From an uncultured Rikenella sp. (lineage in GTDB: Bacteria > Bacteroidota > Bacteroidia > Bacteroidales > VadinHA17), in the NCBI GenBank assembly GCA_964455705.1, contig CAYVYM010000002.1:67193-131192 (forward strand): a stretch of 64,000 nt of DNA, written 5' to 3'. The notes below the pieces were generated by a model. The model had not been told where the DNA came from. It searched no databases and worked only from the letters and a program-made list of their open reading frames with translations. A program made the translations under genes and the position numbers. The stretch's first letter is position 1, and each line of letters opens with the position of its first letter. Of this stretch, positions 20,434-48,769 are shown in pieces.

Positions 20434-20443
20434 AACGAAACAG

Positions 20444-21202: not shown

Positions 21203-21254
21203 CCCTTTTATCACATTTTTCTTAACTTTCCGTCAGTAATCAAATTATACGGAG

Positions 21255-21674
21255 ATGAAAGGAAAACCAGCGCTGGTCTTATTGGTGGCGATTGTCATGC
21301 TGACAGCATGCAAGAAGAGATGTATCACACCTGAAGGCCCAACAGATGTCCGTATCTTTAACAACACCGGACTGACAATGGAGGAGGTGACAGTCACAAC
21401 TACTGATAATACTGATTATGCAATTAGGATCCATAACTTCGGCTCCGTGGCTGCCGATGCATATTCAGAATATTTCAGGTTTGATATTGCCTTCACGGAG
21501 GCTGACATCACGCTGAAAATCGGTGATCTTACATACTCCACGCCCCCGTCCCAATTTGACTATCTCACATATATCGGCCAGGATCGCATAACATACCGTC
21601 TGACGATAGCTGACGCCGTGAACCGGATCCTGGAGATAGAGACCATAATTGAAGAGCCTATCGATGACCTTTAG
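21255..21674 (+). CDS. hypothetical lipoprotein
   Basis: Lipobox LTAC after a hydrophobic leader. No other motif recognised. Confidence 0.55.
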   Translation: MKGKPALVLLVAIVMLTACKKRCITPEGPTDVRIFNNTGLTMEEVTVTTTDNTDYAIRIHNFGSVAADAYSEYFRFDIAFTEADITLKIGDLTYSTPPSQFDYLTYIGQDRITYRLTIADAVNRILEIETIIEEPIDDL

Positions 21675-21682
21675 GGGTTTTT

Positions 21683-23710
21683 ATGAAAGAGTTTATAACC
21701 GTCTGTCCGCGTAACTGTTACAGCACCTGTACATTCAGGGTATTTACCGAAGGGGGCAGGGTGGTACGCATACTCCCTTATGAGGGCAACCTTGCCGCAC
21801 CCGAAGGGCCGTGTATAAAAGGCCTGTCATATCTTGAGCGTGAGTATTCCGCCTCGCGAATAATATATCCTCTACAGAGGCAGGCAGACGGATCATTCGC
21901 CCGGATTGGAACAGAGGAGGCTCTGGATATAATCTCAGGAAAACTACTGACTGTCCGGGAGAAGCATGGTCCTCATTCAGTTCTTTTCTACAAGGGGAGT
22001 GGTAATTCAGGGCTGAGCAATGATATTGCAGGGAACTTCTGGAACCTTTTCGGCGGCGCCACAACAACATACGGTAACCTATGCTGGCCGGCAGGCCTCG
22101 AGGCTGTCAGGCTGACCCTGGGAGAGGTGAAGCATAATGTGCCGTGGGACCTGGCCAACGCAAGTCTCATAATACTTTGGGGCAAGAACCCGGCAGAGAC
22201 CAACGTGCAGGAGATGATCCACATCGACAGGGCACGCCGGAACGGTGCAAAGGTTGTGGTCATCGATCCGCGCCGCACCCCCACAGCCGACAAGGCCGAT
22301 ATTCTCTTACAGCCTCGTCCGGGTACGGATGCAGCCCTGGCTCTGGCAATGGCAAAGGTCATAATAGACAGGAACCTTACCAACAGGGAGTTCATTGAAA
22401 AGCATGTCTCAGGTTTTGATCAGTTTGCAGCGTCACTTAAGATAACGTCAGATAAAGCACAGGATATCACAGGCATACCTTCTAACGAAATTGTCAGGCT
22501 GGCGGTTATGGCAGCCGGAGCAGAGCGACTGACGGTGGTGGCCGGCTACGGTCTGCAGCGCTATACCAACGGCGGGCAAACGATCAGATCCATACTTTCA
22601 ATGCCGGTTATCACGGGCATGATCGGAAAGTCCGGCTGCGGATTCAACTTCGCCAACCTGCAGAGCTACATATTTGATGACATTAAGGAACCACTAAGCT
22701 ATTACCCGGACCCTGAGGCTGACAAACCCTTCAGGCGTGCAATTTCGTTAGCAACATTTGGCCCTGATTTCTTTGCACTGAAAGAGCCGGGCATAGAGGT
22801 GGCGTGGATAGAGAGGGGCAACCCCGTTATACAGCTCCCCGGCAGCGGTGAGGTGAGAAAGGCACTGGAGTCGGTGCCATTTACGGTGGTGGTGGAGCAG
22901 TTCATGACAGACACTGCCGCCATGGCAGACATAATTCTGCCGGCCAAAGGCATCTTTGAACAGGCTGACGTGGTAGGTTCTTACTGGAACCCTTATGTCC
23001 AATATAAGCCCGCCGTAGCCGATCCTCCGGGTGAGGTGATGCCTGAAAGCGAAATCTACAGGCGCCTGGCGGAAAAAATGGGGCTGGATATCAGCAACAA
23101 CAACGGCATACCAGACCCGGGTGGTTATGCCGGGTGGCTCAAGGAACGCATAATCCATACGCCGGGGTTCTCTTATGACGAATTGATGCAGAAACCCGTC
23201 ATCCCTGAACAGAATGAAGACCCGGCATATGCAGATGGAAAGTTCAATACCCTCTCTGGAAAAATTGAACTGTGGTCCGACACCGCAGTGAAGCTGTGGG
23301 GGGTGAATCCACTGCCCACCTATGAACCTCCTGACGACTTCGGAGAAGGGCATCTTCCCTTCAGGCTGATGACGCCGAACATTGCATCACGGATCCACTC
23401 CCAGTTCGGGAATCTGGAGGTGGTGAAGAGTGTCATTGAGGATCCGGCATGGGAGATCTCCGTCAGCGATGCCCGCAGGCTGGGTCTGAAGAGCGGTGAT
23501 ACAATCAGGGTCTTCAACTCACGAGGCGAGGTAAAGGGTCGGGTGATTGTTACAGCCCGGGTCCGGCAGGGAAGCATCGTCTTTCCAAACGGTATCTGGC
23601 TGGCTGAGGGCGGAGGAGTGAACAGTCTCATAGTGCCGGCTGAGACAGACATGGGACATGGAGCAGCCTTTCATAATACAAGGGTTGACATCGAAAAGTT
23701 GCCGGTATGA
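21683..23710 (+). CDS. molybdopterin (bis-MGD) oxidoreductase catalytic subunit, no Tat/signal peptide
   Basis: The N-terminal C-x2-C-x3-C...C cluster motif (CPRNCYSTC...PCIKG) begins at residue 8. DMSO-reductase-family blocks are present: ILWGKNPAETN, VVVIDPRRT, GTDAALALAM. There is a C-terminal beta-barrel domain (IRVFNSRGEV). Confidence 0.85.
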   Translation: MKEFITVCPRNCYSTCTFRVFTEGGRVVRILPYEGNLAAPEGPCIKGLSYLEREYSASRIIYPLQRQADGSFARIGTEEALDIISGKLLTVREKHGPHSVLFYKGSGNSGLSNDIAGNFWNLFGGATTTYGNLCWPAGLEAVRLTLGEVKHNVPWDLANASLIILWGKNPAETNVQEMIHIDRARRNGAKVVVIDPRRTPTADKADILLQPRPGTDAALALAMAKVIIDRNLTNREFIEKHVSGFDQFAASLKITSDKAQDITGIPSNEIVRLAVMAAGAERLTVVAGYGLQRYTNGGQTIRSILSMPVITGMIGKSGCGFNFANLQSYIFDDIKEPLSYYPDPEADKPFRRAISLATFGPDFFALKEPGIEVAWIERGNPVIQLPGSGEVRKALESVPFTVVVEQFMTDTAAMADIILPAKGIFEQADVVGSYWNPYVQYKPAVADPPGEVMPESEIYRRLAEKMGLDISNNNGIPDPGGYAGWLKERIIHTPGFSYDELMQKPVIPEQNEDPAYADGKFNTLSGKIELWSDTAVKLWGVNPLPTYEPPDDFGEGHLPFRLMTPNIASRIHSQFGNLEVVKSVIEDPAWEISVSDARRLGLKSGDTIRVFNSRGEVKGRVIVTARVRQGSIVFPNGIWLAEGGGVNSLIVPAETDMGHGAAFHNTRVDIEKLPV

Positions 23711-25077
23711 GAAGGGGATTTGTATTCGATGCCGCACTCTGTGTGAGCTGCAAGGCCTGCAACGCTGCATGCATTCTGGAAAACGGGCTTCAGCCGGGGA
23801 CACGGAGCATATATACATGGAACGACTCAGGCCTGCCACTGTTGTCCGTCATCAGCCTATCCCTGGCCTGCAACCACTGTGAAAAGCCAGCCTGCGCGGA
23901 AGGCTGTCCTGCAAAAGCGTACTCTATTGAAGGTACCGGGGTGGTGATACATCATGCCGACCGGTGCATGGGATGCGGCTACTGCACCTGGAGATGCCCC
24001 TACGATGCACCGAAGATCAACCATACTCTTGGATATATCGAAAAATGCCATTTTTGCGCCGACAGAGCCATTGAAGGTATAGAACCGGCATGTGTGACCG
24101 CCTGTCCGACTGGCGCCCTTAAAATGAGCGAGAGAGAGCATTTTGACGGGGTTATGCCTGCCTGGTTTCCTGAAACTGGCATAGGACCATCGCTGATTAT
24201 CAAAAACGCTGACCGTATTACCGGGCCGGAAATCATTCCCCGCGATAATGGTGATGAGGCAGCGGAGACGAACCCGGACCACGACGAGGACCCGGGTGAA
24301 GACCATATCCCGAATCCCGCCAGGATACGGAAGGAGTGGAGCCTGATGCTTTTCTCCCTGATGGTGATCACAGCCTCAGCATTAATGGTTTACTCGGAAT
24401 TGACAGACACTGTTGTGTCAGGCCTGCTGCCAGTCCTTCTGCTTGCAGGGGCAATGGCAGTATCGGTTGCACACCTCGGTGTGCCCGGCAAAGCATGGAG
24501 GGCACTCCTCAATATAGTCTCCTCTCCGTTGAGCCGTGAGATAGCGATTGTCGTAATACTGACAGGGATTGCGTTACTGAACTGGGTGGTACCGGGACTG
24601 ATCGCACCGGTTATTGTTATTATAGCATCCTTTCTGACGCTGATTTCAATTGACCTGGTCTTCTTTGCGGCCGACAGGTCATTTAGTCTCAAGCTGCACA
24701 GCGGGCAGGCATTCTTTTCGGGCATATATGCGGTATCATGGTTTATTCAGCCTGACTATATTTTTCTTGTCTTTTCAATGCTGGCGGCACTATCCGTCGT
24801 CATGCGATACGGATCAACCGGCAGATCTCCGCTCGTTCGCAACCTCTATTATTTCAGGGCAATGACGCTTCCGCTGGTCTTCCTGCTCATCTACCCGGGC
24901 ACTCCCTTAATGAACACAGCTGCACTGGTACTCTTCATGGCCGGAGTGGTTGCAGACCGGGTGCTTTTCTACTTCGATTTCAATCCTGTTAATATCAAAG
25001 AGACTATATCTGACCAATTCAACACCGAATATGAAAAAGAGAGAGATAAACAGCGTAAGGACTCCGGTCTATCGTGA
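23707..25077 (+). CDS. fused 4x[4Fe-4S] ferredoxin (DmsB/NrfC-like) + polytopic membrane anchor
   Basis: Four Cys clusters (CVSCKACNAAC, CNHCEKPACAEGCP, CMGCGYCTWRCP, CHFC...CVTACP), then an acidic linker, then about 230 aa of TM helices. ATGA overlap with the upstream gene. Confidence 0.8.
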   Translation: MRRGFVFDAALCVSCKACNAACILENGLQPGTRSIYTWNDSGLPLLSVISLSLACNHCEKPACAEGCPAKAYSIEGTGVVIHHADRCMGCGYCTWRCPYDAPKINHTLGYIEKCHFCADRAIEGIEPACVTACPTGALKMSEREHFDGVMPAWFPETGIGPSLIIKNADRITGPEIIPRDNGDEAAETNPDHDEDPGEDHIPNPARIRKEWSLMLFSLMVITASALMVYSELTDTVVSGLLPVLLLAGAMAVSVAHLGVPGKAWRALLNIVSSPLSREIAIVVILTGIALLNWVVPGLIAPVIVIIASFLTLISIDLVFFAADRSFSLKLHSGQAFFSGIYAVSWFIQPDYIFLVFSMLAALSVVMRYGSTGRSPLVRNLYYFRAMTLPLVFLLIYPGTPLMNTAALVLFMAGVVADRVLFYFDFNPVNIKETISDQFNTEYEKERDKQRKDSGLS

Positions 25078-26200
25078 TTCCGGGTTCGAGCTGCCGACAG
25101 CCGGAACTACCTCCGGCGCCTTTGCCGCGGAGACATCGCACGAGAGGGAACCTGACCAGTACATCTATTCACGCTACCGCAATCCTACTGTAGTTGCCGC
25201 GGAGGAGGCCATCATGGTACTTGAGGGCTCAGAGTGGGCCCTGCTGGCACAGTCGGGCATGGCCGCCATTGACATCGCTCTCTCAATCTTCCAGGAGGCC
25301 GGAAAAAAGAGTAACTGGCTCTTTTTCTCCGAGATATATGGTGGCACTCTCTCCTACATCAGCAGTGTGCTAGCAAAGCGCAGAGGCCTGGAAGTAAGTT
25401 TCTTCACTCCGTCAGCCGGAGGCTATGACTACAGCCGTCTGGAAAGCATGCTCGGGGAGGTTCGCCCTGACCTGGTCTATTTTGAAACAATCTCAAATCC
25501 TCTTCTCATGGTTGCCGAGGGTCGAAGGATAATCACCATGGCAAAGCAACAGGGTGCCAGGGTCATTGTTGACAACACCTTTGCCACGCCGTTACTATGG
25601 AAGCCCCTTGACGACGGCGCCGACATTGTCATCCACAGTGCCACGAAGTACCTGTCCGGTCATGGCAACCTGACTGCCGGGGTCATCTGCGGCAATGACA
25701 CAAAACTGATGCAGAGCGCAATAGAGTACCGCAAGATTGTCGGCCACATGTTGTCGCCCGATGAGGCATACCGGCTGCAGACGCAGATGGCATCGTTTGA
25801 GCTTCGGTTCAGCCGGCAGTGTGACAATGCCTCAGTTGTGGCGGCGCTGCTTAGCGCATCAAAACATGTGGAGAGGGTCTTATACCCCGGCCTTGAAACA
25901 CACGATACACATGCTGCAGCACGGGATCTTACCGGGGGCAGGGGCTACGGCGCCATGGTCACCTTCGATTTCAGAGGCAGCACCCCTGAGGCTAAGAGAA
26001 TGAGGCGCGACAGCTTCATCGCTGCAGTTTACCCGGAGATAAGGCTTATACCTTCCCTGGGTGACAATCACACCATCCTGATGCCCGTTGAGTCTGTCTG
26101 GGGAGCAAAATACCCTGAACCGGGAATGATAAGAATGTCTCTCGGCTACGAGGACCGCAATGTGATAGAATCAGTCATCAGGCGCGGACTTGAGGCGTGA
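25031..26200 (+). CDS. Cys/Met-metabolism PLP-dependent enzyme (cystathionine gamma-synthase / methionine gamma-lyase family)
   Basis: YSRYRNPT, VDNTFATP, HSATKYLSGHGN (PLP lysine). I place the start at ATG 25031 (MKKREINS...), which overlaps the previous gene by 47 nt. The track's 24950 start lies deep inside that gene. Confidence 0.8.
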   Translation: MKKREINSVRTPVYRDSGFELPTAGTTSGAFAAETSHEREPDQYIYSRYRNPTVVAAEEAIMVLEGSEWALLAQSGMAAIDIALSIFQEAGKKSNWLFFSEIYGGTLSYISSVLAKRRGLEVSFFTPSAGGYDYSRLESMLGEVRPDLVYFETISNPLLMVAEGRRIITMAKQQGARVIVDNTFATPLLWKPLDDGADIVIHSATKYLSGHGNLTAGVICGNDTKLMQSAIEYRKIVGHMLSPDEAYRLQTQMASFELRFSRQCDNASVVAALLSASKHVERVLYPGLETHDTHAAARDLTGGRGYGAMVTFDFRGSTPEAKRMRRDSFIAAVYPEIRLIPSLGDNHTILMPVESVWGAKYPEPGMIRMSLGYEDRNVIESVIRRGLEA

Positions 26201-26863
26201 TCACCACTCCACCGGCTCAAGGCCCCTTGCTGTGAGCCATTCGTTGCATTTGCTGAAATGCGAGCAGCCGAAAAAACCCCGCGAGGCAGAGAGGGGAGAG
26301 GGATGAACCGTCCTCAGAATGAGATTCCGGGTATTATCGATTGACGCACCCTTGTTCTGTGCATAATTACCCCACAGCATGAAGACCAGGTTTTCACGGT
26401 CACGGTTCAGGGTGCTGATGGCGGCATCAGTGAATTTTTCCCAACCCCTTTTCTCATGAGAGAGGGCCCGATGTGCCCTGACAGTCAGGATGGCGTTGAG
26501 GAGAAGCACACCCTGACTGGCCCAGCGCCCGAGGTTGCCCGACGACGGGACGGGGACGCCAAGATCCCTGTTAAGCTCCTTGAAGATATTGATAAGGCTG
26601 GGGGGGAGCTCTGTACCGTCGGTGACGGAGAAACAGAGCCCGTGGGCCTGGCCCGGGTTATGATAGGGATCCTGGCCGATTATGACAACCTTCACCCTGT
26701 CAAACGGGCAAAGGTTAAAGGCATTGAATATCAGGTTCCCCGGCGGAAAGACACGGGTGGACGTGTACTCCTTTCTCACAAAGTCGGTCAGGTTGACAAA
26801 ATACTCCTTCTCAAATTCATCCCTGAGCTTCTCCTTCCAGCTTGTTTCGATCTTGACTTCCAT
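26201..26863 (-). CDS. ung: uracil-DNA glycosylase (family 1)
   Basis: VVIIGQDPYH, GVLLLN and HPSPLS motifs. Confidence 0.9.
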   Translation of the reverse strand: MEVKIETSWKEKLRDEFEKEYFVNLTDFVRKEYTSTRVFPPGNLIFNAFNLCPFDRVKVVIIGQDPYHNPGQAHGLCFSVTDGTELPPSLINIFKELNRDLGVPVPSSGNLGRWASQGVLLLNAILTVRAHRALSHEKRGWEKFTDAAISTLNRDRENLVFMLWGNYAQNKGASIDNTRNLILRTVHPSPLSASRGFFGCSHFSKCNEWLTARGLEPVEW

Positions 26864-26911
26864 TCGGTTGACTTTTGCTGATGAGATTTACGGGATAAAT
26901 ATATCCAACTT

Positions 26912-27391
26912 TCAGAGAACCTTGCGGTAAACCAGTTTGGGATCGCCGGGCCCGTAGTACTCGCGGAGGGTTGCCTCCAGCTCGTAGCCGTTTTTCAGAT
27001 AGAAGTGCCGGGTAGGTTCGTAGAGCGGCCTGCCGGAGGTCTCGATCCATAGGATCCTGGCTCCAAGGGCCCTGACACGTTCTTCAACCTCATTCAGGAT
27101 AACTGATCCGTAATGCTTCTGTCTGTGCTCCTCCTGTATGGCGATCCAATAGAGGTCCCATGAATGTATGGAGGATGGATTCGGACCGAAATTAGCGAAT
27201 CCGACTACCTCTCCATCTTCAAGGAGTCTGACCCAGTAATAGCCGCTCTTCTCCTGCCCATTTGCGAAGGTCTCATCAGCAAGAGAGAGCGCCACTTCGA
27301 TCTCAAAATCATAGAAATACCCTGATGAGGTCAGGATTTTCTCAAGTGCCGGCCTGTCTGCCGGGGCGATTTCAAACGAGACTTCAGGCAT
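26912..27391 (-). CDS. GNAT-family N-acetyltransferase (159 aa)
   Basis: IAIQEEHRQKHYGSVIL (acetyl-CoA binding Q/R-x-x-G-x-G/A-like region) and FYLKNGYE tail. Last gene of the aminomutase operon. Confidence 0.75.
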   Translation of the reverse strand: MPEVSFEIAPADRPALEKILTSSGYFYDFEIEVALSLADETFANGQEKSGYYWVRLLEDGEVVGFANFGPNPSSIHSWDLYWIAIQEEHRQKHYGSVILNEVEERVRALGARILWIETSGRPLYEPTRHFYLKNGYELEATLREYYGPGDPKLVYRKVL

Positions 27392-27399
27392 TCTACCGG

Positions 27400-28365
27400 C
27401 TATTTGTTAAGATCGTTGATTATATGGCTGATTATCTCCTCATTGGTATATCCGGCATGAACCGCCGCCGAAATGAATCCGCTGTCAGGGGAGATGCAGG
27501 GGTTGGCATTCACCTCCAGGACATAGACATTCTCATCGGCATCAGAACGCAGGTCTACCCGTGCATATCCCTTCAGTCCGAATGTATGCCAGCAGGCCAA
27601 TACAGCCTCCGTGATATTATTCAACAGCCTGTCACTCAGGTCGCCGGGAAAATTCCGGAGGGTATGGTCAAACTGGAATGTATGTTCCACCCACTTTGCC
27701 TTATAGCTCACTATGCGGGGGATCTCATCAGGATAATCCTGGAAGATCATCTCGGCGGGTGGTAGCATCTCAGGCCCCGCAGGGCTTGCTATCACACTTA
27801 CGTTGAACTCCCTTCCCTCAATAAATTCCTCAATAAACCAGTGATTGTCGTTTTTATCCTTAAGAATCTCCGGAAGAGCCCCGTCCCAGGTAAATACGGA
27901 TTCTTCAGTGATGCCAAGTGATCCGTCTTCCCATACGGGTTTGAGGATATATCTCGCTCCACGGACCAGATCGCGGGCCTCAGACACCCTGTGCCCACCC
28001 GCCACCGGGATACCGTTGACTTTCATAAACCTTCGGGCCAGCACCTTGCTTGCGGTAACGAACGTCGCTTCCACGGGACAGCCCGTATAGGGGATATGGT
28101 GCATGTTCAGCAGGGCGGGAATGAAATAGAGAATCTCCGCCTTCTGTCCGACAGACTCCACAAGATTGAAAATGAAATCGTAGCCTTCATCGGCAAGGCA
28201 GGCTACCTGGTGCATGAAATCGTCCGTAATACCCAGGCGACCGACATCGTATCCAAGGGTCTGCAGTGTGGAGCCGATGAAATTCACCTGGGCCAGGACA
28301 TCCAGTTCGTCGGGCAGTGCGTCAGGGGCGGGCTCGTTGTAGATTATGAGACATCTTTTCTTCAT
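27400..28365 (-). CDS. ATP-grasp ligase (D-Ala-D-Ala-ligase-like family), copy 2
   Basis: Ddl-like layout: pre-ATP-grasp domain, KPVWEDGSLGI, FIEEFIEGREFNV, GYARVDLRSD...YVLEVNANPCI. Its ATG overlaps the upstream stop (TGATG). Confidence 0.75.
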   Translation of the reverse strand: MKKRCLIIYNEPAPDALPDELDVLAQVNFIGSTLQTLGYDVGRLGITDDFMHQVACLADEGYDFIFNLVESVGQKAEILYFIPALLNMHHIPYTGCPVEATFVTASKVLARRFMKVNGIPVAGGHRVSEARDLVRGARYILKPVWEDGSLGITEESVFTWDGALPEILKDKNDNHWFIEEFIEGREFNVSVIASPAGPEMLPPAEMIFQDYPDEIPRIVSYKAKWVEHTFQFDHTLRNFPGDLSDRLLNNITEAVLACWHTFGLKGYARVDLRSDADENVYVLEVNANPCISPDSGFISAAVHAGYTNEEIISHIINDLNK

Positions 28366-29336
28366 CACAGTCCGTAGCGCATTCGTGCTGAATCCATTAT
28401 TAAGCGCATCAGTGTGTCGAAGCTCATTCCGTTCATCCTGGAAAGCATAGGAAGGTCGGAATGGACCGGGTTCAATCCTGCCAGCGGATTTGCCTCGATG
28501 AAGCAGATCCTTCCGTTCCTGTCAGCCTTCATGTCGACGCGGCCGGCATCAACGGCGCCCAGTGCACGCCAGGCTCCCAGAGCCACCGCGTCACACTCCT
28601 GTCTCATATCTTCATCATACACCGTATATCTGACATAGTTCTCGTAGTTCTCCTTTACCTCCACGGAGTAGGGCAGGTTGTCCTTGCAGATAACCTCCAT
28701 ACCTCCTGTAACCTTCGCCTCCGCGCCACTGCCTGTGATACCGACGGTGAACTCCCTTCCGGGCAGGTACTCCTCAATCAGTACCGGCTGATTATATGTG
28801 GCAAGCAGCTCTGTTACCAGGGTCACCAGGGAGTCATGATCTCTCACGACACTCCTCGTGGTTATGCCCTTGCCTGTCCCTTCAGCCACAGGCTTGACGA
28901 ACAAAGGAAACGCCAGCGTCGAGGCCTGGTCAATATCATGTATAGAGGAGGCTGTGATGCCGGGACAGATCGGCACGCCGGCAGCCTCGACCACAAGCCG
29001 GGCCAGGTATTTGTTGAGAGAGACGCCCATCACCACAGGCCCGCTGAATACATACGGGATACGGTACTGGTCGAGCAGCGCCGGAACGACAGATTCACGT
29101 CCGTCGCCGTAAAGGCCTTCCGCGATATTGAACACCATGTCCCATCTTTTCCCGGCAGCAAGCTTCTCAACCAGCTCAAAAATATTGCCAACACGCTCTG
29201 TCTCATAGCCCAGACGGGCAATCATATCCTCAAGGGCAGCCACCGTCTCCTCCTTATCAAACTCAGCCGTCTCATCCATGGTATAACCCCGCTCGAGGTA
29301 CCACGAGCGGAGGTCATAGGTCAGTCCTATCCTCAT
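28365..29336 (-). CDS. ATP-grasp ligase (D-Ala-D-Ala-ligase-like family), copy 1
   Basis: FVKPVAEGTGKGI, LIEEYLPGREFTVG, GAVDAGRVDMKADRNGRICFIEANPLAGL. Confidence 0.75.
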   Translation of the reverse strand: MRIGLTYDLRSWYLERGYTMDETAEFDKEETVAALEDMIARLGYETERVGNIFELVEKLAAGKRWDMVFNIAEGLYGDGRESVVPALLDQYRIPYVFSGPVVMGVSLNKYLARLVVEAAGVPICPGITASSIHDIDQASTLAFPLFVKPVAEGTGKGITTRSVVRDHDSLVTLVTELLATYNQPVLIEEYLPGREFTVGITGSGAEAKVTGGMEVICKDNLPYSVEVKENYENYVRYTVYDEDMRQECDAVALGAWRALGAVDAGRVDMKADRNGRICFIEANPLAGLNPVHSDLPMLSRMNGMSFDTLMRLIMDSARMRYGL

Positions 29337-29344
29337 CCCTTCGG

Positions 29345-30589
29345 TTACTTTTTGTTGGGGTAAGTGTACTGATTCTTCTTATAGTTTCTGAGAACCCATT
29401 TTTCGGGTCCGCTTTCAACAACGTATGAGGGCAGGATTGGTATCTTGCCTCCTCCGCCGGGGGCATCGATAACGAACTGTGGCACGGCATAACCGCTTGT
29501 ATGGCCGCGGAGGTTCTCTATTATCTCTATCCCCTTTTCAATATTGGTCCTGAAGTGGTTTGAGCCGGGTATCAGGTCACACTGGTAGATATAATAGGGT
29601 CTCACGCGCACGGTGAGAAGCTTCTGCATGAGGCTTTTCATCGTTGCCGGGTCATCATTGACGCCCTTCAGCAGGACAGTCTGGCTTCCCAGGGGCATAC
29701 CTGCATCGGCTAGCATCTCGCATGCCCTGCGTGTCTCCGGTGTGAGCTCATCAGGGTGAGTAAAATGCAAGCTTACGAAGACCGGATGATATTTCTTCAT
29801 CATGGCCACCAGCTGCGGGGTGATTCTCTGCGGCAGGACCGCCGGAACCTTCGTTCCAATCCTGAGAATCTCAATATGTTTAATAGCCCTCAGGTTAGAG
29901 AGCAGGTATTCAAGCTTGCTGTCGTTCATCGTCAGAGGATCGCCTCCGCTGATAATGACATCCCGTATCTCTGAGTGTTGGGCGAGATATTTGAACGCCC
30001 TGTCCCATTCACCCTTGGTCAGATGACCGAGCTTGCCCACTGAGTGAGATCTTGTGCAGTACCTGCAATAGGAGGAGCAGAACTGGGTCACGGTGAAAAG
30101 AGCCCTGTCAGGGTAACGGTGAACGATTCCAGGCACGGGACTGTTTCCCATCTCATTCAGAGGGTCAGCCTTCTCGGCCTCGGTTATGATAAGCTCATCA
30201 CTAGTCGGGATCATCGTCCGGCGCAGGGGAGAGCCGGGTTCAGAGTCATATATTAGTGACAGATAGTAGGGAGTGATCCTTAGCGGCAGCCTGTTCTTCA
30301 GCCCGTTGAGAGTGTCTGTCTCGTCATCGGTAAGTGTCATGACACGAGACAACGACTCAGCAGTGGTAAAAGAATTGCGCAGCTGCCAGCGCCAGTCATT
30401 CCATGATTCAGTATTTGCAAGAGGGAAGTAGCGGCGTATGAATTCCGAACTCCGGTTGCTAACTAAACGATCGTGGGATCCGATCTGCGGGAAGATCGTG
30501 GTGCCCGCGCCAGGTTCTTCGTCAGAAGAACAACCCATGAGGCGGTCCTCAACATGAGTGACCGTTGCCTCTTTTCTGTTAGCGTTCAT
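29345..30589 (-). CDS. KamA-family radical-SAM amino-acid 2,3-aminomutase
   Basis: CSSYCRYCTR (C-x3-C-x2-C), ISGGDPL, and N-terminal WNDWRWQLRN, typical of lysine 2,3-aminomutase-like enzymes. Lysine versus glutamate specificity was not determined. Confidence 0.85.
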   Translation of the reverse strand: MNANRKEATVTHVEDRLMGCSSDEEPGAGTTIFPQIGSHDRLVSNRSSEFIRRYFPLANTESWNDWRWQLRNSFTTAESLSRVMTLTDDETDTLNGLKNRLPLRITPYYLSLIYDSEPGSPLRRTMIPTSDELIITEAEKADPLNEMGNSPVPGIVHRYPDRALFTVTQFCSSYCRYCTRSHSVGKLGHLTKGEWDRAFKYLAQHSEIRDVIISGGDPLTMNDSKLEYLLSNLRAIKHIEILRIGTKVPAVLPQRITPQLVAMMKKYHPVFVSLHFTHPDELTPETRRACEMLADAGMPLGSQTVLLKGVNDDPATMKSLMQKLLTVRVRPYYIYQCDLIPGSNHFRTNIEKGIEIIENLRGHTSGYAVPQFVIDAPGGGGKIPILPSYVVESGPEKWVLRNYKKNQYTYPNKK

Positions 30590-30843
30590 ACTTCGGTAAA
30601 ATGAATTACCTTTTTTTTCTGGTTGTTAATTATTCGTTTTAGTTATTAAAAAGTTTCATAAAATTGTCGCTAAGTTATTAAATGCACTGCCTGCGATAAA
30701 GCTGTAGGGCAAAAGATATTAACATGCAAAAGCCACCTGTTATTGTCTGTTTTTCAATTTTATACCCTTCTTCATTCTGAGTTATTCACAGCCCTGTTTC
30801 GGGTTAAAAAAATGATGCCCATAATTAAAGGCGCAAACTTAAA

Positions 30844-32055
30844 TCAAAATTTGATATAAGGGTATTTTTCTGACATTATTTTCAGGTTATTTTTAATCAT
30901 CTGATCGCGCTGGATTGCACACGTTTGAGAGCGTCCTGCATCCTCAGGTGTATTCATTACATAATCAATCAGTTTTTCCATAGTTGTTGTTGCCAAATGT
31001 ATCCTTGTATCTGAGCTTGCGTAATAAACAAAGACCATGCCATCATTGTTCGCAATCCAGCCGTTACTGAACACCACGTTTGAAACATCTCCGACTCTCT
31101 CATCATCAAGTGGTTCCAGGAAATGTCCCGAGGGTCTTTTAATCACTTTCCAGGGCTCTTCCAGAGAGGTAAGAAAGAGGTACAGGGTGTACCGCAATCC
31201 TGCAGCCGTTCTCCTGACACCATGTGCCAGGTGAATCCAACCGGATTCGGTCTTCAGCGGAGCAGGTCCCTGCCCGTTTTTTACCTCCTTTACTGTATGG
31301 TATTGCCGTGGATCCACGAGTATCTCATCGCCCAGAACGGCATGTTCCATGCTATCGCAAAAACCTGCCGAGATTCCGCTGTCGCCTGTCTCTATAAAAC
31401 CTGACTGCGGTCGGGTGTAGATCATGTATTTCCCGTTGACAAACTCAGGGTGCAGTACGCAGTTCCGCTGCTGTGCCGCCGATGACTTAAGATCGTCAAG
31501 CCTCTCCCAGGTATCGAGGTCCCTGGTCCTGGCAATCCCGCAGCTTGCCAGCGCCGCTGAGGAGTCATCGGGCTTGCTCTGATCCTTACGCTCTGCGCAG
31601 AACAGGCCGTAGATCCATCCATCCTCATGCCTGGTGAGCCGGATATCATAGACGTTCATCTCCGGGACAGTGGTGACAGGCATCACAACGGGATGATCGC
31701 GGAAGCGCCAGCGGTCAATGCCGTTGGGGCTCTCGGCAATTGCAAAGAACGACTTAACGTCGAAGCCTTCGGTACGGACTGCCAGGCAGTATTTCCCGTC
31801 ATGCTTTATTGCTCCCGCATTGAAGGTGGTGTTGATGCCCAGCCTTGTCATCAGGTGAGGGTTGGTCTTGTAGTTGAGATCATATCTCCAAAACACCGGG
31901 GTATGATCACGCGTCAGTACCGGATAGAGATACCTGTCAAATATTCCGTTCCCGCCATCCTTCTTCCTGTTTGGCCTGTTGATGAGCGCGGAATGGTCAT
32001 CAAACAGCCTCTTTACACCGGCATCAAATTCCTTTTCAGTCATAATCCCGAACAT
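30844..32055 (-). CDS. GH130 glycoside phosphorylase (mannosylglucose/mannoside phosphorylase-like)
   Basis: YPVLTRDHTPVFWRYDLNYKTNPHLMTRLGINTTFNAGAIKHDGKYCLAVRTEG...FFAIAESPNGID closely recalls the GH130 subfamily-1 enzymes of Bacteroides (from memory). Confidence 0.75.
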   Translation of the reverse strand: MFGIMTEKEFDAGVKRLFDDHSALINRPNRKKDGGNGIFDRYLYPVLTRDHTPVFWRYDLNYKTNPHLMTRLGINTTFNAGAIKHDGKYCLAVRTEGFDVKSFFAIAESPNGIDRWRFRDHPVVMPVTTVPEMNVYDIRLTRHEDGWIYGLFCAERKDQSKPDDSSAALASCGIARTRDLDTWERLDDLKSSAAQQRNCVLHPEFVNGKYMIYTRPQSGFIETGDSGISAGFCDSMEHAVLGDEILVDPRQYHTVKEVKNGQGPAPLKTESGWIHLAHGVRRTAAGLRYTLYLFLTSLEEPWKVIKRPSGHFLEPLDDERVGDVSNVVFSNGWIANNDGMVFVYYASSDTRIHLATTTMEKLIDYVMNTPEDAGRSQTCAIQRDQMIKNNLKIMSEKYPYIKF

Positions 32056-32065
32056 TTTATCGGAA

Positions 32066-32073
32066 CAAATATA
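32066..32073 (-). promoter_or_regulatory. candidate -7 box (TATATTTG on minus strand) for GH130
   Basis: Perfect TAnnTTTG 11 nt upstream of the start at 32055. Confidence 0.35.
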
Positions 32074-32169
32074 ACGGATAACGCAAACCCCCTGTGATCA
32101 TTGTATTATCACCTTGCCAATTGTTCAAACTTTTATAAATTGCCCCTGTAATCATATCATTATACCTAT

Positions 32170-33315
32170 ATGAATAAGCATCTGATTTATATGTTAAGCG
32201 TCCTTCTGCTTATCCCCGCATCATGCGGAAGCAACCGGTCAGATCATAATTTCATGGTTGTCGGATATGTTGCGGGGTTTCGAAGCTTTGACATTTCAAA
32301 GATCGACGCAACAAAGCTCACCCATATAAACTATGCCTTTGCGAATATCATCGACGGGGAGGTGATGTTTGGCAGCGAAAGAATTGACAACACGATCCGG
32401 AACAGCGACGACATAAAAAAACTCGTGGCTCTGAAGGAGATCAATCCCGAACTGAAGGTCCTGGTCTCCATCGGCGGCTGGGGATGGTCAGGTAACTTCT
32501 CTGATGCTGCCCTAACTGACTCTTCCCGAACCCGGTTTGCCGCCAGCGCTGCCGTGTTCATCAGGGAAAATGCCCTTGACGGCATTGACCTCGACTGGGA
32601 GTATCCAAACCAGGTGGGGGCAGGGAATACGTTCAGACCTGAAGATGTTCACAACTTCACCCTGTTGCTGGCATCTGTACGCAAACACATTGATTCTCTT
32701 GCATCTGATCTGGGCCGCAGTGAACCTTACCTCCTCACCATTGCCACCGGTGCCGATTCGGTCTATGTTGCCAACACTGAGCTGGGAGAGATTGAGAAGT
32801 ATTTAGATTTCATCAATATCATGACTTACGATTTCCATCACGGCGCGAGCTCACAAACCGGACATCACAGTAACCTCTATCTCTCAGGTTTTGATAACCG
32901 CGACGGAGATGCCACTGTAAAAAGCGTCAGGCTGCATCTTGAGGCGGGTGTCAGGCCGGAAAAACTAAATGTGGGTGTTCCCTTTTACGGCAGGAGATGG
33001 AAGGGTGCGGAGCCCGTCAATAACGGCCTCTACCGCGAGGCGGCTACAACCGGGGCAGGCATCCCGTACAGTGAGGTTTTGGCTGCGTTGGCTGATAGCT
33101 CCTTTGTTAGGATGTACGATTCCACGGCAGCGGCACCCTTTCTATGGAATGTCAGCGATTCGGTCTTCATCTCGTACGATGATGAGGTTTCGCTGGCAGC
33201 GAAGATGGAGTATGTGAAGTCTCAGGGCCTTGGCGGAGTGATGTTCTGGGAATACACTGAAGATGTTGACGGAATGCTGCTGAACGCCATAGTAAATGGT
33301 TTGAAGGGCAAATAG
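32170..33315 (+). CDS. GH18 glycosyl hydrolase lipoprotein (chitinase / endo-beta-N-acetylglucosaminidase-like)
   Basis: Lipobox PASC, catalytic LDGIDLDWEYP (DxxDxDxE), MTYDFHG-like INIMTYDFHHG. Confidence 0.85.
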   Translation: MNKHLIYMLSVLLLIPASCGSNRSDHNFMVVGYVAGFRSFDISKIDATKLTHINYAFANIIDGEVMFGSERIDNTIRNSDDIKKLVALKEINPELKVLVSIGGWGWSGNFSDAALTDSSRTRFAASAAVFIRENALDGIDLDWEYPNQVGAGNTFRPEDVHNFTLLLASVRKHIDSLASDLGRSEPYLLTIATGADSVYVANTELGEIEKYLDFINIMTYDFHHGASSQTGHHSNLYLSGFDNRDGDATVKSVRLHLEAGVRPEKLNVGVPFYGRRWKGAEPVNNGLYREAATTGAGIPYSEVLAALADSSFVRMYDSTAAAPFLWNVSDSVFISYDDEVSLAAKMEYVKSQGLGGVMFWEYTEDVDGMLLNAIVNGLKGK

Positions 33316-33361
33316 GCCCTGATCTCTAAGCTCCGGGGGTGCACATCGCCTGATCACCAGA

Positions 33362-34264
33362 TCAGATAAAGAAGAATGCCACACCTGCAACGCTCAGTAC
33401 CGCTCCGGCGATCTCCATAGCGGTGATCTTCTCCTTATAAATCCATGCTGAGGGTGCGAGGATAAGTATTGGCACGATAGCCATGATTGTTGAGGCTATG
33501 CCCGCCTGGGTAAATTTTACAGCCAACAGCGAGAAGGAGATTCCGAGGAAAGGGCCGAAGAAGGCGCCAAGCACAAGGGCCTTCATGACAGGAGGGTTCC
33601 TGATTGCTGCCCCGACGTTGCCCCACCGCCGCATAAGGGTTATAACAACGGCAAATCCCACTAAACCTGCAATTATCCTTATCTGGGTCGAGGCAAATGC
33701 ATCATACCCCTCCATACCGTACTTGCTGAGCACTATTCCCAGTCCTTGTCCAATTGCACCGATGAAGGCAAAGAGCAACCCTGCCGGTGCCAGTTTGATC
33801 GACAACCGCTCGCCCTTTACCGGCCTGTTGAAGATAGCCAGTGAGATTCCCAGGATGACTATAACCATACCGGCCATCTGCATGAGGTTAAGCGACTCAC
33901 CAAGGATGAAATAGCCAAAAATGGCTGCCATGGGAGGGGCAAGTGTCATGATCAGCATGGCAAACCTCGAACCGATGAGCGGATAGGAGCGAAAAAGGAA
34001 ATAATCGCCCAGAACCAGCCCGACAATACCTGAGAGGCCCAGCCACAACCAGTTGAATCCGGTTGCGTCCATGGGAAGGATTTGTCCGCGGGCTATCCAT
34101 GTATAGATGCTCAGGAAGACCATGGCCATACTGAGTCTCAATATGTTTACCGTGAGAGAGCCTACCTTGCGGCTGGCCGACTCAAACGCCAGCGCCGTAA
34201 TGGTCCAGAAAACAGCCACAGCCAGCGCGGCAAACTCACCTGTGTGAGCGTTAATGTACTCCAT
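33362..34264 (-). CDS. DMT-superfamily (EamA-like) transporter
   Basis: 300 aa, about ten TM helices in two repeated halves. Confidence 0.7.
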   Translation of the reverse strand: MEYINAHTGEFAALAVAVFWTITALAFESASRKVGSLTVNILRLSMAMVFLSIYTWIARGQILPMDATGFNWLWLGLSGIVGLVLGDYFLFRSYPLIGSRFAMLIMTLAPPMAAIFGYFILGESLNLMQMAGMVIVILGISLAIFNRPVKGERLSIKLAPAGLLFAFIGAIGQGLGIVLSKYGMEGYDAFASTQIRIIAGLVGFAVVITLMRRWGNVGAAIRNPPVMKALVLGAFFGPFLGISFSLLAVKFTQAGIASTIMAIVPILILAPSAWIYKEKITAMEIAGAVLSVAGVAFFFI

Positions 34265-34286
34265 GCCCGGTTAAAAGATCAGGGCA

Positions 34287-34294
34287 CAAAAATA
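34287..34294 (-). promoter_or_regulatory. candidate -7 box (TATTTTTG on minus strand) for the EamA gene
   Basis: Perfect TAnnTTTG 23 nt upstream of the start at 34264. Confidence 0.4.
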
Positions 34295-34457
34295 TACAAT
34301 CGCCTGAACCATGCACCCTTTTAGCCAATTCTCTGAAAAATTTTCTGTAATGACCACACCTGCGGCCACTTTACGGCGATACTTCCTGTAAATGGTTTTC
34401 AAAGTGAAATATGTTCCGTTGAAGCCCCGTTATAGGTTGGCCTGAGTGCTTTCTTTC

Positions 34458-34487
34458 AACAGACTTTTCAACGTTGAAAAGTCTGTT
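34458..34487. promoter_or_regulatory. perfect 30-bp palindrome (candidate operator)
   Basis: AACAGACTTTTCAACGTTGAAAAGTCTGTT. All 15 pairs were checked by hand. Its last base is the first base of the -7 box at 34487. Confidence 0.6.
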
Positions 34488-34494
34488 ATCTTTG
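34487..34494 (+). promoter_or_regulatory. candidate -7 box (TATCTTTG) for the VTC operon
   Basis: Perfect TAnnTTTG 16 nt upstream of the ATG at 34510. Confidence 0.45.
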
Positions 34495-34509
34495 TACGGG
34501 ATTGATATA

Positions 34510-35292
34510 ATGGAACTAACGGAAATAGCTGATATACTGCAAGGATTCGAACCGGTGGGACTTGAAAGCATGACTGAGGTCAGGTACATGGACCGTGTAG
34601 ATACCAAATATCTGTTTTCAGTCAGCAAGTTGCCGCTGCTCCTGCAGAATGTAAGCCCCCTCTACCAGGCCCTTGAGATAGAGAGGCAGCGCGAATTTCG
34701 CTACAAGACGGTCTATTTTGATACTCCCGAACATCTCTTTTACAACCAGCATGTGACCGGCAAGATGAACAGGTCAAAGGTCAGGATCAGGACTTACGAG
34801 ACGAACGGTCTCACCTTCCTCGAGGTAAAACAGAAGTCGAACAAAGGCCGTACTTCAAAATCGAGACTGGAGAAGGAGCCGGGCGACATGAACCATATTC
34901 AGGAATCGCGCGAATTTCTCACAGAGCTTGTGGCCGGGGATGCCAATTCACTCAAGGCTGTTATCAACACGGGTTTTTCACGGGTTACGCTTGTAAACCT
35001 GCACAAGGCAGAGAGGATCACCATCGATTACAACATCTCATGGAACAACCTTAAGGGCGATTGCGTGGAGATGCCTTACCTGGCAATAGCCGAGATAAAG
35101 AGTGAGAAGTCAACCTCACTCTCCCCCTTCTTTCAGCAGCTTAAGCATCTTGGCATACGGAGCACAGGCTTTAGCAAATATGCGACAGGCATGGCACTGG
35201 TAAACGGTGTGCCGAAACAGAATAGCTTAAAACCGAATTTTTTACTCTTAAACAAGATCAGGGATGAATATTACAGGAATGGTTCTGCCTGA
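34510..35292 (+). CDS. VTC-domain protein (polyphosphate-polymerase-like triphosphate tunnel fold)
   Basis: MDRVDTKYLF, FRYKTVYFDTP, KVRIRTYETNGLTFLEVKQK and AIAEIKSE strands, typical of bacterial VTC-domain proteins. The track start at 34474 is a TTG inside the palindrome. Confidence 0.7.
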   Translation: MELTEIADILQGFEPVGLESMTEVRYMDRVDTKYLFSVSKLPLLLQNVSPLYQALEIERQREFRYKTVYFDTPEHLFYNQHVTGKMNRSKVRIRTYETNGLTFLEVKQKSNKGRTSKSRLEKEPGDMNHIQESREFLTELVAGDANSLKAVINTGFSRVTLVNLHKAERITIDYNISWNNLKGDCVEMPYLAIAEIKSEKSTSLSPFFQQLKHLGIRSTGFSKYATGMALVNGVPKQNSLKPNFLLLNKIRDEYYRNGSA

Positions 35293-35968
35293 CGGCAGCA
35301 CCGCATCAACGGCATCGGAAATGTTCAGTTTCGATGGATTGCCGGAACTATTACTTCGATTTGGCATTAACCTGGTGGTCATTCTCCTACTGGTGCGATG
35401 GCTATATTATTCCTCCACCAGGCGAAAAGACTACCTCTTTACCTACATACTGATCTCCAGCGTCGTCTTCCTGCTGTGTTACCTGCTTGAGAGCGTCAGC
35501 CTTCAGATAGGGTTTGCGCTGGGACTATTTGCCATATTCGGGATAATCAGGTACCGTACCAACCCCATGCCAATCAAGGAGATGACCTATCTCTTCCTTG
35601 TCATAGGGATCTCCGTGATAAATGCTCTCGCAGTCGGCACAAGCCTGTTTGAAATACTCTTCGCTAATATTGCTATTGTACTCATCACATTCGGCCTCGA
35701 GAAGGTATGGCTGCTCAGGCACACATCATCAAAGGTCATCGTTTATGAAAAGATAAATCTCATTGTGCCGGAGAAATATGATGAGATGATAGCCGATCTG
35801 CAACAGCGTACCGGAATACATGAGATAAGCAAGGTTGAGATAGGTGCGATCAATTTCCTGAAGGATACATGCCGGATGATAATATACTATGAGGAGAAGG
35901 ACAGCACGGTCAATCTTGCCAACCAGAACGGATTCAATAAAACGGAAGACACTGATGATGATGACTAG
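35264..35968 (+). CDS. DUF4956 membrane protein
   Basis: LLLRFGINLVVILLLVRWLYY and three or four TM helices. It is the usual partner of bacterial VTC-domain genes (from memory). The start is uncertain: ATG at 35264, 35279 or 35321. Confidence 0.6.
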   Translation: MNITGMVLPDGSTASTASEMFSFDGLPELLLRFGINLVVILLLVRWLYYSSTRRKDYLFTYILISSVVFLLCYLLESVSLQIGFALGLFAIFGIIRYRTNPMPIKEMTYLFLVIGISVINALAVGTSLFEILFANIAIVLITFGLEKVWLLRHTSSKVIVYEKINLIVPEKYDEMIADLQQRTGIHEISKVEIGAINFLKDTCRMIIYYEEKDSTVNLANQNGFNKTEDTDDDD

Positions 35969-36632
35969 AAGAGCCGTATATATAATTCTAGGTCTTCTCA
36001 TGTCTGCTGCGCTTTACGGACAAAAGACTGATTTAGGTATCTGGTATGAGGTCAAGGCAGAAAAAAAGATCATAGACAACCTGCGTTTTGATCTGGAGGC
36101 CAGCATACGTACGGACCAGAATGCATCACATATTGACAAGTTCTACCTTGAGCCCGGCATGAGGTACAAATTCAACGATTACCTGGCTGCCGGTCTCTAT
36201 TACCGCCTTACAGAGCAGAAGGAGAAGGACGGAAATTATCATCCACGTCATCGCTGGTTTATACAGGTCAAAGGCACTGCCCCCTCGGTATATCGCTTCA
36301 CTTTTGCCACGAGGTACAGGATACAACAGCAGTTTAAAACCTATATTAAAGACCCTGATGATGAGGTGCCCGGATGGTATCAGAGGTTTAGGCTTGAACT
36401 GGATTACAATATAAAAGGGATCCCCCTCAAGCCCTATATAAATGTGGAAATGCACAGCCAGCTCTTCAATCACAATGAATACACAATTGACAAATGGCGG
36501 TCAAAGGTTGGCGCTGAATACACACTCAATAAGAGGCATACCATTGGTCTTGAGTACATCTATAATGAAAGCAGGGTCACAAAACCAGCCTACATGAACA
36601 TTCTGGGAGTAACCTACTCTATTAAGCTTTAA
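35955..36632 (+). CDS. DUF2490-like outer-membrane beta-barrel protein
   Basis: Signal peptide MMMTRRAVYIILGLLMSAALYGQ, alternating aromatic beta-strand pattern, C-terminal ...GVTYSIKL. The start overlaps the DUF4956 stop. Confidence 0.55.
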   Translation: MMMTRRAVYIILGLLMSAALYGQKTDLGIWYEVKAEKKIIDNLRFDLEASIRTDQNASHIDKFYLEPGMRYKFNDYLAAGLYYRLTEQKEKDGNYHPRHRWFIQVKGTAPSVYRFTFATRYRIQQQFKTYIKDPDDEVPGWYQRFRLELDYNIKGIPLKPYINVEMHSQLFNHNEYTIDKWRSKVGAEYTLNKRHTIGLEYIYNESRVTKPAYMNILGVTYSIKL

Positions 36633-48436: not shown

Positions 48437-48769
48437 TAGACATAATATGAGAAATATGATTATAACCAATTATAACACAAAGGAGACTTTTCTGATGCTG
48501 ATAGTCATTACATAATAGTGTAATTAAGTTATATGATTCACACGTTAATTATAATTAATGATTTTATGCTCAATTAACATGCACATCCATGTTTCTTCTT
48601 CCTGAGATTCCTTAAGTCACAAGTGCAATTACCGCGACATTGTGAAAAAAATGCAATTGGCCCTATACATTGATCCACACAACAGTCGGTTGTTGAATAG
48701 CAACAATAAATAGCGTATTAACAACTATTTGTTTAGGTATTTGTAACGATTCCGAAGATTGATCCGGGT

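Follow-up and report, generated by a model that had tools for sequence, protein, structure and literature searches.

Several described systems join lysine isomerisation, ATP-dependent ligation or N-acetylation in the making of small amides. In the AblA/AblB (KamA/YodP) pair, a lysine-type 2,3-aminomutase is followed by a GNAT acetyltransferase in one operon. In pyrrolysine biosynthesis (PylB/PylC/PylD), a radical S-adenosylmethionine (radical-SAM) enzyme isomerises lysine, and an ATP-grasp enzyme resembling D-alanine--D-alanine ligase (Ddl) and carbamoyl phosphate synthetase joins the product to an amine of a second lysine. PylB does not belong to the KamA family and makes 3-methyl-D-ornithine, and the pathway comprises one ligase and a dehydrogenase, with no GNAT. 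The osmolyte N-acetylglutaminylglutamine amide (NAGGN), made by Ngg and AsnO, is an N-acetylated dipeptide formed without a ribosome or a non-ribosomal peptide synthetase, via GNAT plus ATP-grasp activities; Ngg is a single GNAT/ATP-grasp fusion that acts on glutamine and is partnered with an amidotransferase. Here, we describe a four-gene operon that resembles each of these systems in part, located in a 64,000-nt stretch of DNA (the window) from an uncultured Rikenella sp. (contig CAYVYM010000002.1, positions 67,193 to 131,192). On balance, and with somewhat better than even confidence, we read it as a self-contained pathway for a small, cytoplasmic, N-acetylated beta-lysine amide.

The operon consists of four minus-strand open reading frames (ORFs) in the following order:

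29345..30589, minus strand: KamA-family radical-SAM/pyridoxal 5'-phosphate (PLP) lysine 2,3-aminomutase (LAM), 414 aa, predicted to make beta-lysine (CSSYCRYC motif; TIGR00238)
28365..29336, minus strand: ATP-grasp ligase AG1, 323 aa, Ddl fold (Dala_Dala_lig_C)
27400..28365, minus strand: ATP-grasp ligase AG2, 321 aa from the ATG (Dala_Dala_lig_C)
26912..27391, minus strand: GNAT N-acetyltransferase, 159 aa, 2R7H family (Acetyltransf_1)

The genes are tightly packed. As read from the sequence, KamA and AG1 are separated by 8 nt (TAA, ccgaaggg, ATG), AG1 and AG2 overlap by 1 nt (TGATG), and AG2 and GNAT are again separated by 8 nt (TAG, ccggtaga, ATG). The genes, sizes and junctions given in a first-pass annotation of this DNA agree with both the ORF list and the sequence; for AG2, a GTG one codon upstream of the ATG, chosen by a mechanical ORF finder, would give 322 aa. 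No intrinsic terminator was found between the four genes.

Like AblA/AblB, the cassette places a lysine-type aminomutase ahead of a GNAT in one operon, and an N-acetylated beta-lysine derivative would be expected. However, two ATP-grasp ligases lie between them, the GNAT is a 159-aa protein of the 2R7H type, and the aminomutase scores below the AblA cut-off. The best mechanistic precedent is PylB/PylC, where a radical-SAM lysine mutase feeds an ATP-grasp enzyme, as in the cassette; pylB- or pylD-like genes were not seen among the cassette neighbours. In contrast to NAGGN biosynthesis, the ligases of the cassette are separate Ddl-type proteins accompanied by an aminomutase, and no amidotransferase is found in the neighbourhood. 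The ligases share with the Ddl and Van enzymes a three-domain fold (in the AG1 model) and all the ATP- and Mg-binding residues, but their identity to them is only 20-26%, and they carry other residues where Ddl recognises D-Ala1 and D-Ala2. The EpmB/EpmA system of elongation factor P (EF-P) likewise couples a KamA-family supply of beta-lysine to an ATP-dependent ligation; the cassette differs in holding ATP-grasp ligases, with no efp and no EpmA resembling lysyl-tRNA synthetase (LysRS) nearby.

The strongest argument for a functional unit comes from its conservation. A profile scan over GTDB, with one genome per species, gave at least 600 candidate stretches, of which at least 592 were confirmed by tblastn; unless stated otherwise, the counts of order, linkage and accessory genes refer to the best 80 of these, and loci "with room" are those with enough flanking DNA on the side or sides needed. 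Of 56 species-representative genomes that have room both upstream and downstream, 40 keep the order KamA-AG1-AG2-GNAT, while partial cassettes hold only KamA-AG1-AG2 (11/56) or only AG1-AG2-GNAT (5/56). AG2 lies directly downstream of AG1 in 74 of the 80 loci, KamA is upstream of AG1 in 60 of 71 with room, and a GNAT follows AG2 in 50 of 65 with room. The hosts belong to Bacteroidota, Desulfobacterota, Spirochaetota, Planctomycetota, Fusobacteriota and other phyla, and include Bacteroidales, Cytophagales, Chitinophaga, Desulfobacterales, Syntrophales and Bacteriovoracaceae, as well as Spirochaetota, Ignavibacteriales, Aminicenantes, Pirellulales, Cloacimonadota and Ilyobacter. The cassette order is thus kept across roughly ten bacterial lineages in several phyla, with AG1 proteins 48-54% identical between the Bacteroidales of the window and hosts outside Bacteroidota. 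The four-gene arrangement is not due to chance.

Natural fusions point in the same direction. Many family members are tandem AG1-AG2 fusions of 640-730 aa, and one protein of 746 aa joins KamA to a ligase; as Rosetta-stone evidence, these AG-AG and KamA-AG fusions indicate that the cassette enzymes act in one pathway. The first-pass annotation had suggested a survey of gene neighbourhoods and named loss of the linkage in relatives as one finding that would speak against its proposal; the linkage proves to be conserved well beyond Bacteroidota, and the fusions reinforce it. No further gene family is consistently linked to the cassette loci, and genes for a transporter, a carrier protein, a Mur ligase or a VanH/VanX-type enzyme do not recur consistently among the neighbours. 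Where AG1 stands alone or without KamA, the neighbours are unrelated housekeeping genes. High-GC shadow ORFs found 3' of AG2 in Desulfobacterales loci were dismissed, as they have no Pfam match.

The first enzyme of the cassette is the one whose reaction can be predicted best. Domain calls, made with Pfam and NCBIfam models at curated cut-offs, assign it Radical_SAM and LAM_C domains, and it reaches the KamA subfamily model TIGR00238 (350 bits, cut-off 199), with the CxxxCxxC motif present as CSSYCRYC. Aligned to the structure of the Clostridium subterminale LAM (2A5H; 438 bits, 355 residues aligned), it keeps both D293 (in YQCD) and D330 (in FVIDAPGGGGK), as well as the PLP lysine, its DAPGGGGK segment aligning to residues 330-337 (K337 of LAM). 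In LAM, as established by the Frey laboratory, D293 and D330 hold the epsilon-ammonium of lysine, while in glutamate 2,3-aminomutase Lys and Asn replace these two Asp residues. YQCD is present in 62 of 62 full-length cluster-linked homologues and D[AS]PGGGGK in 60 of 62. The residues binding the distal group of the substrate, which the first-pass annotation had proposed to read, are therefore Asp/Asp and not Lys/Asn, and their retention strongly suggests that the beta-amino acid produced is beta-lysine.

The aminomutase scores 476 bits against the AblA model, 424 against that of glutamate 2,3-aminomutase, 378 against the arginine model and 252 against EpmB, all under the equivalog cut-offs (these NCBIfam comparisons cover the best 25 matches listed). 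The match to lys_2_3_AblA (TIGR03820; cut-off 525 bits) covers model positions 3-359 of 417, and that to LAM_C only positions 1-56 of 127, so that the C-terminal ~58 positions of the AblA model are missing, while an N-terminal extension of ~55 aa is present. These scores, together with the missing C-terminal region and the extension, place the aminomutase in a distinct lysine-type clade. The missing ~58 positions presumably correspond to the multimerisation region of LAM, and the oligomeric state may thus differ from the LAM tetramer. Identity as a glutamate 2,3-aminomutase (TIGR04368) was rejected, since the Asp/Asp pair is kept and the score is far from the cut-off of 650 bits; identity as EpmB was rejected on its score (cut-off 369 bits), and no efp or LysRS-like gene recurs among the neighbours.

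The two ligases, 27% identical to each other, are distant paralogues. Both match the ATP-grasp domain Dala_Dala_lig_C in Pfam (AG1 84 bits, AG2 71 bits, cut-off 24), and their closest matches overall are Ddl and Van ligases at the low identities given above. Against the best Ddl/Van model in NCBIfam they score 130 and 110 bits, respectively, with curated cut-offs of at least 243. An AlphaFold2 model of AG1 built from a diverse alignment has a mean predicted local distance difference test (pLDDT) score of 93.7 and superposes on DdlB (8EVZ) with a template modelling (TM) score of 0.80 at 26% identity; among the PDB matches listed, 50 of 50 are Ddl. An earlier model from a shallow alignment (82-93% identical sequences; pLDDT 60) was discarded.

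A residue survey, in which 69 AG1 and 64 AG2 sequences were aligned to Escherichia coli DdlB (the reference residues after the first 60 being verified by alignment), separates catalysis from substrate recognition. Of the residues that serve ATP, Mg and the transition state, K97, K144, E187, K215, R255, D257, E270 and N272 show essentially no variation in AG1 or AG2 (a single AG2 carries E270D), and the position of E180 is invariant in AG1 and Gln in 9 of 64 AG2. Both proteins thus belong to the Ddl-like ATP-grasp ligases by their ATP- and Mg-binding residues, and by the three-domain fold in the case of AG1. With all of these residues conserved, the acyl-phosphate mechanism is presumably shared with Ddl. 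In DdlB, on the other hand, the substrate is contacted by E15, S150 and Y216 and by S281 and L282. Y216 is replaced by Glu in AG1 and by an invariant Trp in AG2, S150 by Thr and by Gly or Ala, and L282 by an invariant Asp and by Gly, respectively. At the position aligned with V18, every AG1 has Asp, as do 63 of 64 AG2, the remaining one having Glu. The intact ATP/Mg residues and the replaced D-Ala residues indicate that AG1 and AG2 are ligases predicted to be catalytically intact, and that neither is a Ddl. The extra acidic residues hint at cationic, diamino-type substrates, weakly so because the N-terminal part of the alignment, including the region around E15, is ambiguous.

An assignment as Ddl or Van ligases was therefore rejected, with scores below every curated cut-off and the D-Ala site residues replaced. 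In addition, a genuine Ddl (512 bits, cut-off 457) is encoded 4 kb from the cassette in the Bacteroidales genome of locus L032. The possibility that the ligases are orthologues of the housekeeping Ddl, which the first-pass annotation had listed among the findings that would refute its proposal, does not hold. An exhaustive HMMER search at E<=1e-30 places the AG1 family in 497 clusters at 50% identity. Exact-sequence look-ups with the AG1 of the window and with protein P0001 matched no recorded contig. One metagenomic protein of 980 aa (P0242) carries N-terminal leucine-rich repeats fused to an AG1-family ligase domain.

The fourth gene encodes a member of the GNAT superfamily (Acetyltransf_1, 51.6 bits, cut-off 20.7) with only weak similarity to RimI and AAC(6') in NCBIfam. 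No match to AblB (TIGR03827) or to an Ngg-type model was found in NCBIfam at E<=1e-3, so that the cassette is not a simple ablA/ablB pair; this supports the earlier suggestion of a product beyond plain acetyl-beta-lysine. The closest solved relative is PDB 2R7H (E=3.5e-31, residues 7-156, ~150 residues), a structural-genomics entry, originating from Oleidesulfovibrio alaskensis G20, labelled by its depositors as "putative D-alanine N-acetyltransferase". Searching with a sequence reconstructed from the 2R7H alignment yields a protein that is 99% identical, together with homologues from Desulfovibrio species in culture. The loci of these proteins hold a sigma54 enhancer-binding response regulator followed by KamA, ATP-grasp, ATP-grasp and GNAT genes. 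The orphan structure 2R7H therefore belongs to this cassette, as the loci of the 99%-identical protein carry it. The cassette is also present in cultured Desulfovibrio mangrovi, where a further gene, with GNAT-like and histone deacetylase (HDAC)-family domains, comes after it.

This accessory gene is found in 14 of the 80 loci. It encodes a protein of ~580 aa that combines an HDAC-family domain with an N-terminal domain weakly similar to GNATs, and is either inserted between KamA and AG1 or, in Desulfobacterales, fused to the cassette GNAT (~750 aa). A second accessory gene, for a small membrane protein of the DMT_6/DUF486 family, comes after the GNAT in ~10 loci. Examples of both, in locus coordinates, are the following:

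L028, 5111-6862: GNAT-like/HDAC accessory gene
L034, 3952-5724: GNAT-like/HDAC accessory gene
L043, 9022-11271: GNAT-like/HDAC accessory gene
L074, 5182-7449: GNAT-like/HDAC accessory gene
L081, 8629-10386: GNAT-like/HDAC accessory gene
L001, 9325-9693: DMT_6/DUF486 membrane protein gene, overlapping the GNAT stop codon in the closest relative of the window

The deacetylase domain is closest to acetylpolyamine amidohydrolases (APAH; 9GKZ at 2e-74, 6PHR and 3Q9B), well ahead of stand-alone bacterial HDAC-like amidohydrolases and of class II HDACs except HDAC6. Together with the GNAT, this deacetylase resembles the reversible cycles of polyamine acetylation, although it differs from APAH in its extra N-terminal GNAT-like domain and in being embedded in, or fused to, the cassette. 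A partner of the APAH type suits a product that bears an N-acetyl-aminoalkyl arm, as N-epsilon-acetyl-beta-lysine does in its side chain. Both accessory genes are absent from the 64-kb window, where the uracil-DNA glycosylase gene ung comes 48 nt after the GNAT; the DMT_6/DUF486 gene was either lost from it or never there.

Taken together, these data suggest the following pathway. In a first and well-supported step, KamA would turn L-lysine into beta-lysine (3,6-diaminohexanoate) by radical-SAM/PLP chemistry. AG1 and then AG2 would each convert a carboxylate into an acyl phosphate and couple it with an amine, so that two amide bonds arise one after the other; the existence of a natural KamA-AG1 fusion makes it probable that AG1 comes first and acts directly on beta-lysine. 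The exchange of Ddl's small hydrophobic and hydroxyl substrate residues, with acidic ones at the position of V18 and, in AG1, of L282, suggests that the partners could be cationic compounds of the diamino type, for instance a further beta-lysine, lysine, ornithine or a polyamine. The GNAT would then acetylate a remaining free amine, neutralising its charge, and the resulting N-acetylated beta-lysyl di- or tri-amide would be kept in the cytoplasm. In some lineages the APAH-like deacetylase might reverse the acetylation, and the small DMT-family membrane protein would be appended to the system. As to its role, our best guess is that it serves as a compatible solute, or as a cation resembling polyamines with a charge tuned by acetylation.

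Several observations weigh against this proposal of an N-acetylated beta-lysine amide, or at least limit it. The product is predicted from the genes alone, and the substrates of the ligases are deduced solely from residue changes in an alignment that is ambiguous at the N-terminus. The aminomutase lies under the AblA cut-off and is devoid of the C-terminal region, so that its full equivalence to LAM is putative, as is the stereochemistry of what it makes. The GNAT is absent from beside the ligases in 11 of 56 genomes and KamA in 5 of 56, so that the pathway would be modular. The names of the host samples, as given in the record titles, include freshwater, fen and unspecified sources, plus some saline or marine ones, and such mixed sources lend no clear support to an osmolyte role. 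Finally, the response regulator of the Desulfovibrionaceae loci hints at a regulated function, possibly in nitrogen metabolism or stress, rather than at housekeeping.

An improbable alternative is that the cassette makes a secreted or toxic beta-lysine natural product similar to streptothricin, in which the GNAT would serve for self-protection or to form a pro-drug, and the deacetylase and DMT protein for activation and export. The GNAT domain of the Desulfobacterales fusion does match, weakly, the streptothricin N-acetyltransferase STAT (E=3.8e-4), and the APAH-like deacetylase in 14 of 80 loci and the DUF486/DMT_6 gene that overlaps the GNAT stop codon in L001 (a family found in ~10 loci) could be accommodated. 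However, the composition of the cassette is near-invariant across phyla at 48-54% AG1 identity, unlike that of variable biosynthetic gene clusters, and most loci, including that of the window, are without an exporter or immunity gene. A search of 72,556 plasmids gave no match at >=80% of the query and only two weak partial ones, and PADLOC found no match to a defence system.

Comparably doubtful is a role in building or tagging a macromolecule, where the ligases would polymerise their substrate in the manner of cyanophycin synthetase, or attach beta-lysine to a protein or envelope polymer as an ATP-grasp alternative to EpmA. Cyanophycin synthetase combines two activities, and the two distinct ligase activities of the cassette, kept together or fused, would match this logic; the acidic pockets would suit poly-cationic chains, and relatives of KamA feed protein modification in EpmA/EpmB. 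Yet both ligases are of the Ddl type by sequence, and AG1 also by predicted fold, and the known members of this type act on small molecules. Relatives of the RimK, LysX or TTL type were not matched at E<=1e-3. The cassette has no conserved small ORF linked to it and no linked gene for a carrier protein, EF-P (efp) or the ribosome, and the EpmB score is 252 bits against a cut-off of 369. In its most elaborate version, to which we likewise give little credence, the cassette would build or attach a beta-lysine polycation, either a polyamide with backbone and branch bonds or a beta-lysyl tag, with the GNAT/deacetylase pair switching its charge. If true, this would represent a new kind of non-ribosomal polymer or modification across hundreds of anaerobic species.

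Less probable still is a function in the cell wall, with the Ddl paralogues making an alternative peptidoglycan dipeptide or depsipeptide (such as D-Ala-beta-Lys) and the GNAT modifying the precursor. Such a function could be argued from the best hidden Markov model, PDB and fold matches of the ligases, all of them to Ddl or Van enzymes, and from the name given to 2R7H by its depositors. That name is an annotation and not an assay, and the ligases score below all Ddl cut-offs, with neither the E15/S150/Y216 triad nor L282 conserved. Moreover, no Mur ligase, racemase, VanH or VanX gene is linked, and L032 encodes its bona fide Ddl 4 kb from the cassette. Least credible of all is an ordinary pathway to N-epsilon-acetyl-beta-lysine as an osmolyte, analogous to AblA/AblB, with the ligases as unrelated passengers: the AblA model is indeed the nearest to the aminomutase (476 bits) and the GNAT lies in the same operon, but the ligases intervene between these two genes, at junctions that overlap or measure 8 nt. 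They also show the steadiest linkage of all members (74 of 80 loci have AG2 with AG1), many genomes have them fused to one another or to KamA, and the GNAT has no AblB match.

As a putative pathway to an N-acetylated beta-lysine amide, the cassette represents a widespread and well-defined orphan variant of the known ATP-grasp/GNAT biosynthesis of small amides, which we treat as uncharacterised and which implies a fate, the fifth, not characterised before. A search of 8 million full texts found no characterisation of the four-gene set, where the phrase "lysine 2 3-aminomutase" cannot match the form written with a comma, and a paper on the sigma54 regulome of Desulfovibrio does not mention the cassette genes. 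The cassette occurs in hundreds of species-level genomes of anaerobes, among them Bacteroidales from sediments and digesters, sulfate reducers, syntrophs, spirochaetes and planctomycetes. Once the product is identified, two large families that currently go by the mistaken name "D-alanine--D-alanine ligase" would gain a function, as would the orphan structural-genomics GNAT 2R7H. The product itself could be a novel compatible solute or a stand-in for polyamines that matters when anaerobic communities face salt, ammonia or nitrogen stress. Since cultured Desulfovibrio species carry the cassette, its function is directly testable.

Upstream of the operon, a conserved region with a small hairpin was recognised, and a regulatory gene precedes the cassette in Desulfovibrionaceae:

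30590..30725, minus strand: conserved upstream region with a GTTAATAT box (30716-30723), a promoter-like segment and an A-rich 5' leader
30595..30610, minus strand: small hairpin GGTAA-TTCATT-TTACC, whose end lies 5 nt upstream of the start codon
L081, 2857-4568: sigma54 enhancer-binding response regulator before the cassette
L082, 2874-4464: sigma54 enhancer-binding response regulator before the cassette

L001, L002 and L004 match the window exactly or almost exactly along the ~140 nt that directly precede the ATG, with L003 more diverged; the KamA proteins of these close relatives (L001-L004) are 86-94% identical to that of the window. More distant Bacteroidales have in common with the window the GTTAATAT box and a TAnnTTTG-like box, and the promoter-like box resembles a Bacteroidota promoter. 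This upstream region, whose conservation in Bacteroidales is unusual, may be a cis-regulatory element. All 20 Bacteroidales leaders compared have a hairpin of 5-8 bp located 5-10 nt upstream of the ATG, and the RNAalifold consensus holds compensatory changes at 2 of 5 pairs. This hairpin is a short and weakly supported candidate for a regulatory element; alternatively, it could be a DNA palindrome bound by a regulator. Rfam gave no RNA family at E<=1 across positions 20000-36000 of the window, leaving a riboswitch reading unsupported. Scans for sigma-70 promoters and terminators, uninformative for this organism, gave counts near or modestly above the shuffled expectation. In D. mangrovi, the region upstream of kamA contains a TGGCATATCTGTTGCT promoter of the -24/-12 type and GGAACA-N4-TGTTCC palindromes; neither a sigma54 promoter nor this palindrome was found in the window.

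The genes that flank the operon are unrelated to the cassette. Its upstream neighbour, across a gap of 254 nt, encodes a glycoside hydrolase family 130 (GH130) phosphorylase, and ung is the downstream neighbour; further out are a GH18 enzyme, a Cys/Met PLP enzyme and a molybdopterin oxidoreductase. The closest relatives of the locus are metagenome-assembled genomes of Bacteroidales and Rikenellaceae, with protein identities of 89-94%. At positions 21683-25077, on the plus strand, a gene for a molybdopterin oxidoreductase overlaps by 4 nt with the next gene, in which a 4Fe-4S dicluster domain is joined to a DmsC-like membrane anchor; this pair is likewise unrelated to the cassette. Positions 38402-48469 of the minus strand are occupied by a single ORF of 3355 aa, rich in Thr, Gly, Ser and Asn, in a stretch of lower GC content (0.42-0.44). 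Pfam gave no match for this ORF at E<=1e-5; its start resembles a signal peptide and its C-terminal tail a sorting domain of the type IX secretion system, and it probably encodes a giant surface or secreted protein.

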